64,000 bases of DNA from NCBI GenBank assembly GCA_031426555.1, contig JANPLN010000023.1:214-64213 (forward strand), written 5' to 3'. Positions 13,852 through 48,377 of this stretch are shown in pieces. Each line of letters opens with the position of its first letter. Position 1 is the stretch's first letter. The notes under the pieces are model-generated. The model searched no databases, was not told where the DNA came from, and was given only the letters and a program-made list of their open reading frames with translations. The translations under genes and the position numbers were made by a program. Origin of the DNA: Bdellovibrionales bacterium. GTDB taxonomy: Bacteria; Bdellovibrionota; Bdellovibrionia; Bdellovibrionales; JAGQZY01.

Positions 13852-13928
13852 CGGGGAGTAGCGCAGTCTGGTAGCGCATCTGGTTTGGGACCAGAGGGTC
13901 GCAGGTTCGAATCCTGTCTCCCCGACCA
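13852..13928 (+). tRNA. tRNA-Pro (anticodon UGG), CCA encoded
   Basis: Hand-folded cloverleaf: acceptor CGGGGAG/CTCCCCG, D stem GCGC/GCGC, anticodon stem TCTGG/CCAGA with loop TTTGGGA (TGG), T arm GCAGG-TTCGAAT-CCTGT, discriminator A, then CCA. Confidence 0.9.
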
Positions 13929-13931
13929 ATT
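13921..13931 (+). repeat. attL core CCCGACCAATT (last 8 nt of tRNA-Pro plus 3 nt)
   Basis: Identical 11-mer at 48367-48377 in the same orientation. Confidence 0.6.
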
Positions 13932-14049
13932 TTTTTTTGACTTAAAATCCCAAAAAAACAGCACAAAAAATCCCTAATAATTGTAAGTAATTGAAATCCC
14001 ACAGAGGGGGTTTTTCTGTTGTGCCTATTTTTTAATGAAATATCATGAC

Positions 14050-14091
14050 GTTTCACGAGTTTGCTTCACGGAAGCTTCACGAATGCTTCAC
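14050..14091 (+). repeat. Helically phased heptamer repeats GCTTCAC x3 (11-bp period) plus GTTTCAC
   Basis: GCTTCAC at 14063, 14074 and 14085, with a degenerate copy at 14050, about 120 bp inside attL in a non-coding stretch. Confidence 0.5.
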
Positions 14092-14427
14092 CTAAAATGA
14101 CCCCTTTTCAGAGGGGAAAGGCCGTGGTTTGCCTGCAATTGAATCGAAAGCACGAAAAGAACATGTATTCGTTTCTAGTAATCTAAAATTGTTAGTTCTA
14201 AGACTAACCAAATGGCCCTTGCGAAAACTTAGAGCATCATTGAAGCGCTTCAAATAAACTTCATAAGATGTCAGACTTATACTGCAAAGTCCTACTTTCA
14301 GGCTTAGTTGTGCGGTTAATAGCTGAAGTTATAATGACGCCAAGTCGTCGTTTCTATTCAACTTGGCAAACTCGATGGAAGCACAGAGTCTCTACGTTTA
14401 TCGTTCTAGAAGGCTCCCAATAATCTT

Positions 14428-14847
14428 TTAATGATGATGAGTCGTCTCTTTCTTTTCTTTTACAATCTCATCAAATGCTTTTAAATCATAGCTAACGTCG
14501 ACTGATACACCGTCTCGGTTGGCTTTCAGATTCAGCTTTCCATCTTTTGGAGGAACGGCCTTTGTTTTACAGTGGTAATGGGTTCCTCCCATCACTGAGC
14601 AATCAAGTTTGATTTCTTCCTTAGATGTTTTTATAGATCCATCTAAGCTTGAGTTTTTTACCGTTGGATTTAATAAATTACCATCAAGTAGAAAAATATG
14701 AAATGATCCATCTTTGTCAGCAGCTACTTCGGTGTGAACATTTTTAGCCATCTCAATCTTTCCACCGTGGGGACCTGGTTTATCTTCACCATGTGCAAAC
14801 ACTTGTAATCCAGAAAAAAGAATTAAAAAGAATATAGAATTTTTCAT
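14428..14847 (-). CDS. Secreted small protein with predicted N-terminal His and C-terminal HHH (putative periplasmic metal-binding protein)
   Basis: Signal peptide ...LQVFA|HGEDKPGPHGG and C-terminal TTHHH. Paralogous to 24936-25388 (shared HG.P..GG start and the DGS/T-F/V-H/R-I/V-F/Y-L strand). Confidence 0.6.
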   Translation of the reverse strand: MKNSIFFLILFSGLQVFAHGEDKPGPHGGKIEMAKNVHTEVAADKDGSFHIFLLDGNLLNPTVKNSSLDGSIKTSKEEIKLDCSVMGGTHYHCKTKAVPPKDGKLNLKANRDGVSVDVSYDLKAFDEIVKEKKETTHHH

Positions 14848-14856
14848 AGCAGCTCC

Positions 14857-15615
14857 TTATTTTACAACTACAGAGAGAGGAATTGTTTTTAAAACACCAT
14901 CATCAATAAATTGAATCCACAACCGATATTCTCCAGCCAAGGGGAAGGTTGCATGTAGCATACCCATATTTGCGTCGTTACCCTCCATCGGGTGAACATG
15001 AATAAGGTCGTTTCCATTAAGTGGTGTCGCGATTACGTGAGCAAAAGCTCCCAGGTATGGAGAAAGACTAGGTGCTGTACCATCCGTTCTTGTTACCATA
15101 AAATCTATCATCGCCATTTTTCCAGCTTTGAGTTTTGTATTCGCAAGCTCTACTTGAGTTGTGCCATCTGCACCGACTCTTACATCACCAAGAGAGGTGA
15201 CTGGGATCTCCATCTCACCATTAACAACTACAACTGATCTACTTACAGAAAACTCTTTTCCATTTAACGTTTTTCCTTGCGCCCACACCTTATATGATCC
15301 ACTTACGGGAAGGTTCAATTCGACGTCCCAGGCCGTACCATTAAACTGAGGGTGCACATGGTTAAATTCGTTCAAAGAAGCGTCGTAAACCACGAGATGA
15401 AGAATTTTCGTATGTGTTTCGATTAGATCCATATCTGAAATCGATTTTGAAGTTTTATCATCCACGAGGTTAAACGAAAAATTGAGGCTTTCTGATGCAG
15501 AAAGAGTGGTTTGTGGGGTTTCGATTTGAACCCCGGCGAATGCAGAACCGCAAACTAGTAACCCTGTTAAAAATAATAATTTTCTCATATTCCCCCTTAT
15601 GTTGTTGAAACTCAT
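14857..15615 (-). CDS. Secreted protein with two tandem HVHP-motif domains (putative metal-binding, Ig-like)
   Basis: Signal peptide (the true start may be the internal MRKLLFL at 15588). An internal duplication carries NEFNHVHP...GSYKVWAQG in one copy and NDLIHVHP...GEYRLWIQF in the other. Confidence 0.55.
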   Translation of the reverse strand: MSFNNIRGNMRKLLFLTGLLVCGSAFAGVQIETPQTTLSASESLNFSFNLVDDKTSKSISDMDLIETHTKILHLVVYDASLNEFNHVHPQFNGTAWDVELNLPVSGSYKVWAQGKTLNGKEFSVSRSVVVVNGEMEIPVTSLGDVRVGADGTTQVELANTKLKAGKMAMIDFMVTRTDGTAPSLSPYLGAFAHVIATPLNGNDLIHVHPMEGNDANMGMLHATFPLAGEYRLWIQFIDDGVLKTIPLSVVVK

Positions 15616-15845
15616 CTGTTCTTTAGCATGAAGTCATGTAAGACGGACCTAAAAAGTAAACTCTGGCCGCTTAGCTAGACATTACTAGAAGCAACTACGT
15701 TCGCGCTATGCGTTTTGTGACAAACATCAACAAATAAAAAGAATAGTGTAATTATCCTAGAAATTTTAGGTATTTATGAAATATATTAACTTTCTGTCAC
15801 AACCGGCTTTGTCAATTCGTAGTACCAAGTGAGGATTATACTAAA

Positions 15846-46454: not shown

Positions 46455-46474
46455 AAAATATTAAAGGAAATAAA

Positions 46475-46846
46475 ATGGAAAACAAAGAATTAGAACAAAA
46501 AAAAGAAATACAAAACAACAAAAGAAAACGAGAAGAGCATTATCGAGTGATCTTAACAAAAAGTGCAAATATGGCATTAGAGTCGTTTACAAATAAGATA
46601 AGCGATGAAGTCTCGTTTTCTAACATTACAAAATCTGACGTTGCAAATTGGCTACTTGAACGCATTGAAAAGAAGATCTCGACTTCAGAAGCTAATGAAA
46701 TTCTTGATTCTAATTTTGATGAAACCAAGGCTCTAAATAATCTTCTTAAAAATCATAAGAACGGAGTTCAGGATCTCCCACAAGAAATTGCACTCGCACT
46801 AAAGTCACATTTAAAAATGAGTAGAAAATCAAAAAAAGCTAGCTAA
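46475..46846 (+). CDS. Small K/E-rich protein, possible relaxosome accessory/RHH-like
   Basis: 123 aa. A basic N-terminus is followed by HYRVILTKSANMALESF (beta-strand/helix typical of RHH-type proteins). The call is mainly positional. Confidence 0.35.
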   Translation: MENKELEQKKEIQNNKRKREEHYRVILTKSANMALESFTNKISDEVSFSNITKSDVANWLLERIEKKISTSEANEILDSNFDETKALNNLLKNHKNGVQDLPQEIALALKSHLKMSRKSKKAS

Positions 46847-46941
46847 CTAAATTTTAAATACGAAGCCTAATGATTTTAGAATCTTAGGTGCCCCTAAAAA
46901 TCAATCTTGCCCTTGAATGGGCCCCTCACTAGGAGTATAAC

Positions 46942-47169
46942 ATGAGTACTTATAAGCTTCCGGAATCGGAAGAATTATGGCTCTTTGACAAAAGAATATC
47001 GGAGCATGAGTGGCTTTCTACTGAAGAAGCAGCTCGTTTTTTGTCGATCTCTACTAACGCCCTTAGGATTATGGTTTATCGAGAACAAATCAAAGCCTAT
47101 AAGTTTGGTAGGCGTCTAAGATTTAGAATGCATGACTGCAAAGCTCTCTTTATAAAAAAAGGAGCTTAA
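46942..47169 (+). CDS. xis: Excisionase-family HTH protein
   Basis: WLSTEEAARFLSISTNALRIMVYREQIKAYKFGRRLRF is the MerR-like excisionase HTH. It sits immediately upstream of int. Confidence 0.8.
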   Translation: MSTYKLPESEELWLFDKRISEHEWLSTEEAARFLSISTNALRIMVYREQIKAYKFGRRLRFRMHDCKALFIKKGA

Positions 47170-47170
47170 A

Positions 47171-48271
47171 ATGGCAATCAGACTTTATACACTAAACGAA
47201 AAACGACTATGGGAAGTACAAGTCAGCGGAACAGACGCGCTAGGAAATCGTCTGCAAAGACGACGACGCGGTTTTGAAACCCGTCGAGCGGCTGAGAAGT
47301 TTGAATTCGAACTAAAACGCGAACTCAGAATGATCAAAGATACGGCCATACCACCTCGATGGGGTGAATGGCTTCCTGTCTGTCTAGAACGGATGAAGCT
47401 TGTACACAGACCGTCTACGGTTGAAAACTACTCAAGAACATTAGGCAAGTGGGTCACACCATCTTGGAAAGATAAAGATTTAACAGACATCTCAAAAGCT
47501 GATGTTTACTCATTAGTTTATGAATCTTTAAATCCTGAACTTTCCCCGTGGTCTAAAAAAACAATTCTAAAGTTCATAAAAAGGATTTTACAAATGGCAG
47601 TCGAAGAAGGAATTCTTGCAAGAAATCCTTCTGTAGGAGTCAAAGTTACTGTTCCTGAAACTGATCAAAAAGTTTTAACGAATAGTGAAGTTGAAATTTT
47701 CCTAAAAGAAGCCAAAGCTTACAATCACAGATTTTATCCTATATGGGTCATGGCCCTATTAACTGGAATGAGATCAGGTGAAATGTATGCATTGAAATGG
47801 TCTGACGTAGATTTTGACGTTGGGATCATTACTGTAAAAAGACAATGGACGAGCAAGAATGGTTTTGGACCCACTAAAACCCAACGCAGTAGGGTTGTTC
47901 CTATTGCAGAGGATTTGTCTAAGTTTTTAAAGGAACTGAAACTTAAAAATGACGGAAGTGAATATGTGCTTCCCCAATTGCCTGAATGGACCCAAGGGGC
48001 TCAAGCTGAGGTCACCAGAGAGTTTTGTGAGGCCATCCAAATCACGTCGATTAAGTTCCATGATTTGAGGGCTACGTTTATCACAAACTTACTGACCCGA
48101 GGCGAAACGCTAGCACGAGTGATGTCTATAGTTGGCCACAGCCAGATTAAAACCACGAATGTTTACCTCAGAAAAGCTGGGATTGATGTTCAAGGGGCTA
48201 CTGACAAACTTGGATATGGCGTCCCACAGGGCATTTCAGGACAAGTTATCCCTTTAAAAACCAAGGGTTAG
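47171..48271 (+). CDS. int: Tyrosine site-specific recombinase (integrase)
   Basis: GMRSGEMYALKW (Arg box I), and HDLRATFITNLL...GHSQIKTTNVYLR (H-x-x-R ... H ... Y). Confidence 0.9.
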   Translation: MAIRLYTLNEKRLWEVQVSGTDALGNRLQRRRRGFETRRAAEKFEFELKRELRMIKDTAIPPRWGEWLPVCLERMKLVHRPSTVENYSRTLGKWVTPSWKDKDLTDISKADVYSLVYESLNPELSPWSKKTILKFIKRILQMAVEEGILARNPSVGVKVTVPETDQKVLTNSEVEIFLKEAKAYNHRFYPIWVMALLTGMRSGEMYALKWSDVDFDVGIITVKRQWTSKNGFGPTKTQRSRVVPIAEDLSKFLKELKLKNDGSEYVLPQLPEWTQGAQAEVTREFCEAIQITSIKFHDLRATFITNLLTRGETLARVMSIVGHSQIKTTNVYLRKAGIDVQGATDKLGYGVPQGISGQVIPLKTKG

Positions 48272-48366
48272 ACACCAAACCGCTTAAAATGTAGTTGAAG
48301 CTGCAAATGGCTTCTGCTACTTTAAAATAACAAGCGATTCAGGGTGCTTAAAGATTGAGCCGAACA

Positions 48367-48377
48367 CCCGACCAATT
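48367..48377 (+). repeat. attR core CCCGACCAATT
   Basis: Identical to 13921-13931. Lies 96 bp downstream of the int stop. Confidence 0.6.

Follow-up and report, generated by a model that had tools for sequence, protein, structure and literature searches.

The insertion at tRNA-Pro(UGG) and its ends

The window analysed here, a stretch of 64,000 nucleotides of a Bdellovibrionales bacterium (contig JANPLN010000023.1), contains a 34.4-kb AT-rich region at a tRNA-Pro(UGG) gene that had been proposed, from the letters alone, to be an integrative and conjugative element (ICE); we refer to that proposal as the original prediction. In the whole window, ARAGORN and Rfam (RF00005, 69.6 bits) detect a single tRNA gene. 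This gene, for tRNA-Pro(UGG), lies at positions 13852–13928 (+ strand) and ends where the prediction had placed its end. It is the integration target and is intact. An 11-bp core, CCCGACCAATT, spans its 3′ end at positions 13921–13931 (+ strand; attL) and comprises the final 8 nt of the tRNA (the last four acceptor-stem bases, the discriminator base and CCA) and the three downstream bases, ATT. The window holds exactly two copies of this core, the other lying in the same orientation on the + strand at positions 48367–48377 (attR), whereas about 0.03 exact copies of a given 11-mer are expected by chance in 2 × 64 kb. Two one-mismatch matches, at positions 16300 and 32735, were considered as internal att sites and rejected as chance, since their number is within the shuffle expectation of 1.1. 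The element thus delimited consists of positions 13932–48366 plus one repeat copy and measures 34,446 bp from repeat to repeat.

The attR copy starts 96 bp past the stop codon of a gene for a 366-aa tyrosine integrase (positions 47171–48271, + strand; Pfam Phage_integrase, 6e-24) that has an N-terminal arm-binding domain (Arm-DNA-bind_4, 6e-6) and the catalytic residues R201, H297, R300, H323 and Y332. The preceding gene (positions 46942–47169, + strand) encodes a 75-aa excisionase (Xis) of the helix-turn-helix (HTH) type (Pfam HTH_17, 5.7e-9), which scores above the cutoff of the TIGR01764 ‘excise’ model (31.1 versus 28.8 bits). The second repeat, the order of the excisionase and integrase genes and the location of the integrase at the tRNA-distal end were all read correctly in the original prediction, and so was the base composition: the GC content is 39.2% in positions 13932–48366 compared with 47.1% in the left and 45.0% in the right flank, and the tetranucleotide distance to the flanks is about twofold higher at 14–48 kb and drops again at both ends. 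This compositional shift coincides with the two repeats. The genes of the flanks are of an ordinary chromosomal kind, for a metallophosphoesterase, a zinc peptidase, a porin and a histidine kinase.

In order to find the site without its insertion, one genome per species was scanned. An empty site reading tRNA-Pro...CCCGACCAATTAAACTATTCAGGG, exactly as predicted, is present in a Bdellovibrionales metagenome-assembled genome (MAG; JAYUKO010000394.1, locus L001), which is 86% identical to the window over 6.3 kb (positions 7711–13931) and then continues straight on at position 48367. A second Bdellovibrionales MAG (JANOYW010000016.1, locus L024) is likewise empty, with 85.7% identity over positions 10592–13931 followed by 86% over positions 48378–48610. 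From both, all of the 34.4 kb is missing as a single block, and synteny breaks exactly at both repeats, as the original boundary call on the short core required. Judged by genome comparison, these junctions demonstrate site-specific integration at the 3′ end of tRNA-Pro. In both empty sites, tRNA-Pro is directly followed by the same hairpin that the window carries just past attR (positions 48387–48435, + strand; a 19-bp stem followed by a T-run). The stem has compensatory substitutions, its 5′ arm reading TTTATAAAAAGGATC, TTTTCAAAAAGGATC or TTTTCTAAAAGGATC, with a matching 3′ arm in each case. Since the same hairpin directly follows tRNA-Pro in the empty sites, this predicted structure is the tRNA gene's own terminator, displaced by 34.4 kb through the insertion, as had been proposed.

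As regards the availability of the target, the tRNA-Pro 3′ end and the adjoining ATT make up a 28-mer that the genomes of more than 119 species share without change (genome-contig scan, loci L024–L142); these species include members of Bdellovibrionota, Sphingomonadales, Lysobacterales and Saccharibacteria. The element family would therefore find its attB core in a very broad range of potential hosts.

Sister elements and relatives of the integrase

Searches with the VirB4 ATPase (see below) and the integrase recovered a sister ICE that lies on a single contig (JBGSSY010000232.1, 37 kb; loci L105, L002 and L004) of another MAG. The sister begins at an identical tRNA-Pro gene and, like the element, is closed by CCCGACCAATT, about 100 bp past its integrase gene. 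Its left arm matches the first 203 bp of the element (positions 13932–14134, + strand) at 97.5% identity, beyond which the cargo diverges, and the backbone matches at 86–94% over positions 29362–37619 and 41903–48329, while the chromosomal DNA on either side is unrelated to that of the window. The cargo also differs: the sister has another AbiE pair and a nuclease between virB8 and virB9, and, on its left side, a helicase/methylase pair. Another locus (L003) holds a third copy, which matches the window at 97.5% identity from position 41905 to 48377, the last core base, and diverges right after it. In two further loci (L005 and L010) the genes are ordered VirB9–VirB10–coupling protein–lipoprotein–MOB_C-like protein–123-aa open reading frame (ORF)–Xis–Int, and L013 retains parts of this order. 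The secretion genes of L010 are contiguous and carry no cargo; the ars/HNH/AbiE block of the window is therefore an insertion into the operon.

Twenty relatives of the integrase, with 50–100% identity, were found in Bdellovibrionales, Bacteriovoracaceae and Oligoflexia. The same tRNA-Pro core lies about 100 bp after the integrase gene in four of them (L004, L005, L010 and L017), and many others have a different motif resembling a tRNA 3′ end at this place (…CTCCGCCA, …CCGCTCCA or …GCAACCA). Such a core about 100 bp after the integrase gene is found down to relatives at 50–70% identity, several of which have a matching tRNA gene upstream; the same-strand upstream tRNA genes of the relatives are those for Pro, Gly, Ser, Met, Leu or Cys. 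These comparisons provide evidence that a family of related elements moves.

Within the left arm, the heptamer GCTTCAC occurs three times at exactly 11-bp spacing (positions 14063, 14074 and 14085), about 130–160 bp inside attL, with a degenerate GTTTCAC at about position 14050. Unrelated tRNA-Pro islands (L114 and L126) have similar 11-bp-phased triplets (TTGCTAC or TTGCTTC) at their left ends, and a GCTAC-N-GCTAC motif follows the integrase stop codon in many of the integrase relatives. The GCTTCAC repeats and GCTAC motifs are candidate arm-type integrase sites. In many relatives (L008, L010, L016, L019 and L021), the attP-side sequence immediately to the left of the core, about 70–110 bp after the integrase gene, repeats the core in inverted form, as in TGGCGGAG...CTCCGCCA and GGTCGGGG...CCCCGACC. 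These inverted repeats mimic an acceptor stem, and their arrangement would suit a pair of core-type sites for integrase binding; in the window, the core copy is only weakly symmetric.

Several other arrangements were observed around integrases of this family. The attR core is directly followed by tandem 8-mers in L003 (positions 11208–11260), L005 (11207–11260) and L014 (about 11140–11230), with GGTTCTAC repeated 2–4 times in the former two and GATTCTAC nine times in L014. Past the tandem 8-mers, L003 and L005 share a conserved ...TCGATGGTGGAAC..., and L014 has only the looser ...CACAATAGTGGGAAG.... An unrelated second element, integrated in tandem at this tRNA site, may have its left end here. 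In L020 (positions 298–11300), as in L008, L016 and L011, a small island occupies the space between a tRNA gene and an integrase gene of the family. The L020 island, about 11 kb after tRNA-Gly, encodes two C5 DNA methylases, a HATPase protein, a MOB_C-like protein, Xis and Int and has no secretion genes; by their gene content, islands of this type look mobilisable and could use the secretion system of the larger elements. Finally, integrase and ICE genes of the Bdellovibrionota type, at 39–44% GC, occur in L014, L016 and L021 (JAGTJX01, labelled Lysobacteraceae) and in L010 (labelled Pseudomonadota). A spread across phyla was not accepted on this basis, the loci having 40–44% GC and the taxonomic labels of these MAGs looking doubtful.

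The type IV secretion system and coupling protein

The genes for the type IV secretion system (T4SS) lie in two blocks on the + strand. Block 1 (positions 32295–37626; Pfam TrbC, P-loop_TraG, TraC_F_IV and VirB8) is syntenic in L002, L010 and L013. It encodes a VirB2/TrbC pilin (32295–32612; Pfam TrbC), a TraL/VirB3-like protein (32625–32957; weak TraL match), a TraC-like VirB4 ATPase (32944–35451), a 261-aa protein that is bitopic by its transmembrane (TM) profile and lies between the VirB4 and VirB6-like genes, a polytopic VirB6-like protein (36161–37027; weak TrbL match and TM profile) and a VirB8/TraE-like protein (37039–37626; Pfam VirB8). Block 2 (positions 41923–45614; Pfam CagX, TrbI, T4SS-DNA_transf and TraG-D_C) encodes a VirB9/CagX-like protein (41923–42633; Pfam CagX), a VirB10/TrbI-like protein (42627–43565; Pfam TrbI), a VirD4/TraD-like coupling protein (43507–45174; Pfam T4SS-DNA_transf and TraG-D_C) and, in the position of VirB7/TraV, a glycine-zipper lipoprotein (45165–45614; NCBIfam lipoprotein match). 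A VirB4-family ATPase, a coupling protein, of which the original prediction had taken note, and further mating-pair-formation (MPF) genes are all present in the element.

The VirB4 protein aligns end to end with the TraC-F-type model TIGR02746 (E = 2e-93), with 313.7 bits compared with a cutoff of 567. The VirB4_CagE model gives 210.8 versus a cutoff of 643, the TrbE models score lower, and TIGR03744 (traC_PFL_4706) gives 87 versus 520. For the coupling protein, the best curated match is the SXT-type TraD model TIGR03743 (SXT_TraD; E = 8e-37, 127 bits versus 366), and VirB9 and VirB10 match P-type models weakly. The nearest plasmid VirB4s, those of Thermus, Myxococcus plasmid pYRE and IncA/C (TraC), are 25–26% identical. 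Like F-type (MPF_F) systems, the element thus has a VirB4 that is TraC-like over its whole length, together with weak TraL and TraE similarity; unlike these systems, its TraC remains below the cutoff (314 versus 567), Pfam detects no F-specific gene (TraF, TraH, TraN, TraU, TraW or TrbC) among the element ORFs scanned, and its outer-membrane core looks VirB9/VirB10-like. It also falls outside MPF_T, the VirB/Trb type, with the VirB4 and TrbE models below cutoff and no VirB11-like ORF. Because all conjugation proteins score below the thresholds of the curated families, the element is, on this profile evidence, a Bdellovibrionota ICE lineage not yet described, with a predicted T4SS outside the curated types.

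A MOB_C-like protein and a nested palindrome

Pfam found no relaxase among all 41 ORFs of the element, nor among the unassigned ones at E-values up to 10, and the HUH, MOB_H and MOB_T classes are unmatched. However, the ORF that directly follows the coupling-protein and lipoprotein genes (positions 45599–46246, + strand) encodes a 215-aa protein with an N-terminal winged-helix-like region and a PD-(D/E)XK nuclease domain, a candidate relaxase distantly related to MOB_C (TraX/MobC) that the original prediction, naming no relaxase, had missed. A word-indexed search recovered 2 relatives of this protein, and an exhaustive HMMER search 244. In an alignment of 114 relatives, E151, E153 and K157 are invariant, and H95-D96, E118, K135, P137-D138 and R161-Y162 are conserved in at least 90%, which constitutes a PD-(D/E)XK signature. 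The AlphaFold model (pLDDT 95.4) consists of an N-terminal helix-plus-hairpin domain and a C-terminal alpha/beta domain, so that both the active-site motif and the fold are those of a PD-(D/E)XK nuclease. Among the best Foldseek matches (probability up to 0.99) are R.BspD6I, EcoT38I, the nickase Nt.BspD6I and Hjc resolvases. Searches of PDB sequences with the protein and its family profile yielded nothing meaningful.

The protein matches the NCBIfam model NF041423 (MobC_subf, ‘MobC family replication-relaxation protein’) with an E-value of 1.9e-7, as do 93 of the 114 family members at E < 1e-3. With a score of 30.6 bits versus a cutoff of 200, it stays below the curated MOB_C threshold. In a profile–profile comparison (hhalign), the family aligns with the replication-relaxation protein of the Enterococcus faecalis plasmid pTEF1 with 94.8% probability (E = 5.3e-8), the catalytic residues D...ExE...K...RY being in register. 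Plasmid pTEF1 is typed MOBC by MOB-suite, and the 215-aa protein therefore has detectable homology to the relaxase of a MOB_C-typed conjugative plasmid. (The CloDF13 record NC_002119, in which a mobC ORF is neither annotated nor found intact, was dropped as a reference in favour of pTEF1.) A metagenome search with one alignment for further contexts of the MOB_C-like family returned nothing.

MOB_C relaxases have been described as PD-(D/E)XK enzymes whose N terminus forms a winged helix and which are found in plasmids and ICEs of bacteria of both envelope types (2025 review, PMC12857230). Like TraX of pAD1/pTEF1 and MobC of CloDF13, the protein combines such a nuclease core with an N-terminal winged-helix region, is small (215 aa compared with 261 aa) and is encoded just downstream of the coupling-protein gene, as is the MOB_C gene of pTEF1. 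Unlike them, it falls below the NCBIfam cutoff and leaves Pfam Replic_Relax unmatched, its host is a diderm member of the Bdellovibrionota, and its partner T4SS is TraC-like and diderm. Taken together, homology, fold and gene position suggest that the 215-aa ORF is likely to be the relaxase, a distant homologue of MOB_C that would act in the manner of a MOB_C enzyme.

A 122-bp GC-rich nested palindrome (positions 46333–46454; DNA fold −43.5 kcal/mol, z = −8.6) lies between the MOB_C-like gene and the next ORF. Palindromes of the same architecture and different sequence occupy the same position in L003, L004, L005, L009 and L010, and 14 of 32 pairs in the alignment show double-sided (compensatory) changes. 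This palindrome is a candidate origin of transfer (oriT). It differs from the oriT of TraX, in which the relaxase binds five direct repeats (PMC12857230).

The arrangement of these genes is paralleled on the Myxococcus stipitatus plasmid pYRE (NZ_CP102771.1), whose VirB4 is the best-scoring plasmid relative (E = 1e-68). The gene order is similar, with two small genes, the VirB4 gene and then four mid-sized genes, and its coupling-protein gene is followed by that of a 240-aa protein matching the MOB_C-like profile at 83.5% probability, so that a coupling-protein gene closely followed by a MOB_C-like gene is common to pTEF1, pYRE and the element. Unlike the element, pYRE is a plasmid with ParAB and has no integrase, and VirB4 identity is only 25%. 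MOB-suite types pYRE as non-mobilizable; its relaxase is therefore also unrecognised.

Regulators and other backbone genes

The backbone starts with a block on the − strand (positions 29136–30727) that encodes a 372-aa protein of no assigned function with one TM segment (72% aa identity in the sister ICE) and an HTH repressor candidate of the XRE/cI type (30281–30727; Pfam HTH_3, 1.7e-14; 98% aa identity in the sister ICE). It is followed on the + strand by regulatory or leader genes ahead of the T4SS operon (positions 30846–32305; conserved in L002), comprising a 72-aa ORF, two proteins with only region 4 of sigma-70 and a 130-aa ORF; regulators had been foreseen in the original prediction. 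The two sigma-like proteins, of 176 and 80 aa, are encoded by overlapping ORFs (31170–31700 and 31657–31899) that match Pfam Sigma70_r4 and stay below the cutoff of TIGR02937. These ORFs immediately precede the T4SS operon and have conserved counterparts in the sister ICE; the predicted proteins may be unusual activators of the transfer genes. Between the palindrome and the excisionase gene, a 123-aa protein (46475–46846, + strand) is conserved in L002–L005 and L010 and has no family match in profile searches. An accessory role in the relaxosome or in excision is possible. No replication gene was recognised in the element.

Cargo genes

Cargo occupies two hotspots, of which the first adjoins the left arm and the second separates virB8 from virB9. 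The first part of the left cargo (positions 14428–17510) comprises genes for two secreted His-rich proteins (14428–15615, − strand), an extracytoplasmic function (ECF) sigma factor (15846–16358; Pfam Sigma70_r2 and r4), a membrane protein that is polytopic by hydropathy (16345–16887) and may be an anti-sigma factor, and a secreted 220-aa protein; the functions of all but the sigma factor are putative. Next lies a copper module on the + strand (17531–23155), with an HMA metallochaperone (Pfam HMA), a membrane protein, a multicopper oxidase (18181–20391; Pfam Cu-oxidase 1/2/3), a CsoR-type repressor (20466–20765; Pfam Trns_repr_metal) and a P1B-type ATPase (20786–23155; Pfam E1-E2_ATPase with YHS and HMBD). 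The adjoining Cu/Ag efflux module on the − strand (23264–29029; Pfam OEP and ACR_tran) encodes an outer-membrane factor (23638–24888; Pfam OEP), a 152-aa periplasmic protein (24936–25394), a CusA-like resistance-nodulation-division (RND) pump (25385–28519; ACR_tran, 1e-262; best solved relatives CusA, 9e-145) and a His-rich 128-aa protein. No gene for a membrane-fusion protein of the CusB/HlyD type was recognised beside the pump and the outer-membrane factor.

The second hotspot, inside the T4SS operon, starts with arsenic genes (positions 37665–39526) for an ArsC of the low-molecular-weight protein tyrosine phosphatase type (− strand; Pfam LMWPc), an Acr3 arsenite carrier (− strand; SBF) and ArsR (+ strand; HTH_5), which are missing from the sister ICEs at this place. 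An HNH endonuclease (39563–39994, + strand; Pfam HNH_3, 2.2e-9) follows, and then the AbiEi antitoxin and the AbiEii nucleotidyltransferase toxin (40207–41792, + strand; PADLOC AbiEi 2.3e-38 and AbiEii 1.6e-79; Pfam DUF6088 and AbiEii). With adjacent AbiEi and AbiEii genes whose ORFs overlap by 4 bp, the pair belongs to the AbiE abortive-infection (type IV toxin–antitoxin) systems. Each of the cargo classes named in the original prediction (Cu/Ag, As and AbiE) is therefore found between the repeats.

Sequences beyond attR

Just past the terminator, a segment of about 132 bp (positions 48441–48572) is present in the empty site L024 and missing from L001. Positions 48440–48476 correspond to an inverted tRNA-Pro 3′ half, 81% complementary to positions 13888–13924, and a piece at about 48488–48510 (+ strand) resembles the anticodon and variable region of a tRNA. 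ARAGORN and Rfam (E up to 10) call no gene here, and the piece was rejected as a real tRNA or tmRNA and treated as a relic; the segment resembles a tRNA in decay or the remains of an old att site. The right flank has another short low-GC patch (0.38), at positions 52000–54000, which contains a PAS histidine kinase gene (52519–53640, − strand) and a 336-aa ORF that has no Pfam match.

Nature of the element

We consider it quite probable that the 34.4-kb region is an ICE of this Bdellovibrionales bacterium in the full sense, with integration, transfer and cargo belonging to one element. In the integration step, which the genome comparison demonstrates, the lambda-type tyrosine integrase joined the circularised element to the 3′ end of tRNA-Pro(UGG) by a crossover within CCCGACCAATT. 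Because the element brings in an identical copy of the final 8 nt, the tRNA gene remains intact at attL, and its terminator now lies 34 kb away at attR. According to this explanation, Xis, encoded next to the integrase, would assist excision, after which the MOB_C-like PD-(D/E)XK protein would nick or process the element at or near the 122-bp palindrome, and the TraD-like coupling protein would hand the DNA to a minimal diderm T4SS with its TraC-like ATPase for delivery into a recipient. The XRE repressor and the sigma-like regulators would control the transfer genes. Excision, nicking, conjugative transfer and self-transmissibility are what we infer from gene content and conservation.

Several observations weigh against this explanation. 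The original prediction called the T4SS complete-looking: T4SS genes are indeed present, but Pfam detects no homologue of VirB11 or VirB1 among the element ORFs, and all conjugation proteins score below the curated NCBIfam cutoffs. The element has no HUH relaxase by Pfam, and Pfam Replic_Relax (PF13814) matches 1 of the 114 relatives of the 215-aa protein and not that protein itself. MOB_C relaxases as a class are little studied. The predicted attP or circular junction (...GAACACCCGACCAATTTTTTTTTGAC...; ...GATTGAGCCGAACA-CCCGACCAATT-TTTTTTTGACTTAAAATCCC...) was not found in JGI metagenome contigs, a result that is itself uninformative. The element could therefore be mobilisable or defective instead of self-transmissible. 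We judge it unlikely that the region is an integrated genomic island no longer able to transfer itself, either a decaying ICE or a helper-dependent one with an incomplete T4SS, in which the 215-aa protein is not a relaxase. The failure of Pfam to find a relaxase, the MOB_C-like score far below the curated cutoff, the missing attP junction and the splitting of the T4SS operon by cargo between virB8 and virB9 would all be accommodated by such an island. On the other hand, all backbone ORFs are full length and share 90–100% protein identity with sister elements in other genomic contexts, which argues for recent movement and selection. The same 11-gene T4SS set and the MOB_C-like gene are also conserved at 25–65% aa identity in L010 and partly in L005 and L013, the profile–profile match to the protein of a MOB_C-typed plasmid aligns the catalytic residues, and MPF types without VirB11 exist.

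That two elements were joined here, a metal-resistance island of about 13.9–29.1 kb having been acquired separately beside a smaller ICE of about 29.1–48.4 kb, seems very improbable. The left 15 kb shares only its first 203 bp with the sister ICE, and its GC content is slightly different (up to 0.44 at 18–23 kb), as such a composite would predict; yet there is a single integrase and a single pair of att repeats, with no internal exact copy of the core and no second recombinase detected by Pfam, and the conserved 203-bp left arm places the metal genes inside the ends of the element as cargo. The empty sites, from which the 34.4 kb is absent as one piece, likewise speak for a single ICE. It could also be argued that the 11-bp repeat is a coincidence, the core being short and the tRNA-Pro 3′ end plus ATT common across many phyla, and that the low-GC region is ancestral or was acquired otherwise, with its true ends elsewhere. 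Nevertheless, two empty-site genomes break synteny exactly at both repeats, the same core is found at the same distance from the integrase gene in four relatives, and in L003 the similarity to the window is lost exactly after base 48377. Because of the empty sites, the sister elements and the cores of the integrase relatives, a chance repeat or an ancestral segment is untenable, and we assign it a negligible probability.

Comparison with known elements and significance

ICEs of the ICEclc/ICEHin1056/PAPI-1 type and of the SXT/R391 type are tRNA-integrating elements of Proteobacteria. The overall design of the Bdellovibrionales element is like theirs: a tyrosine integrase with Xis, a target 3′ end duplicated as a short direct repeat, a T4SS with a coupling protein, and modular hotspots holding metal-resistance and phage-defence genes. 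The likeness to SXT extends to the coupling protein, whose best curated match is the SXT-type TraD. Unlike ICEclc- and SXT-type ICEs, however, none of its proteins reaches the curated cutoffs of their families (as with TIGR03744 and TIGR03743 above), the relaxase candidate is MOB_C-like and not MOB_H, the T4SS set is much smaller, with about 11 genes, and the integrase is located at the tRNA-distal end.

‘ICE-like’ islands at tRNA genes of Bdellovibrio bacteriovorus had only been suspected earlier (PMC3539863), and the literature that we searched contains no description of a T4SS-bearing ICE in Bdellovibrionota. The element may be the first member to be described of a mobile-element lineage that spans this phylum. 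The hallmarks of the lineage would be a minimal diderm T4SS (about 11 genes) that belongs to no curated MPF family and has TraC/TraD-like ATPases and a VirB9/10-like outer core; a small, deeply divergent nuclease of the MOB_C type that, together with a nested-palindrome oriT, replaces an HUH relaxase; and an integrase family that has repeatedly switched between tRNA genes (Pro, Gly, Ser, Met and Leu) and also drives small mobilisable islands, made of a relaxase plus integrase, that ride on the same T4SS. We put this forward tentatively, as a set of claims with a little less than an even chance of all holding together.

In its mechanism the element is otherwise textbook, one of an ordinary kind, useful as a reference and of modest curiosity. 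As such a reference it is precisely bounded for Bdellovibrionota, with attL, attR, attB and the cargo hotspots defined. It also points to a blind spot in typing, since the relaxase that partners this diderm T4SS appears to be a divergent protein of the MOB_C-like kind. Because standard typing misses this class, as illustrated by pYRE being called non-mobilizable, many ‘relaxase-less’ T4SS islands may be misclassified. The element would move Cu/Ag and arsenic resistance and AbiE defence genes among environmental predatory bacteria, and, if the wider lineage is real, such elements would be a main route of gene flow among these predators, including that of metal resistance and phage defence.

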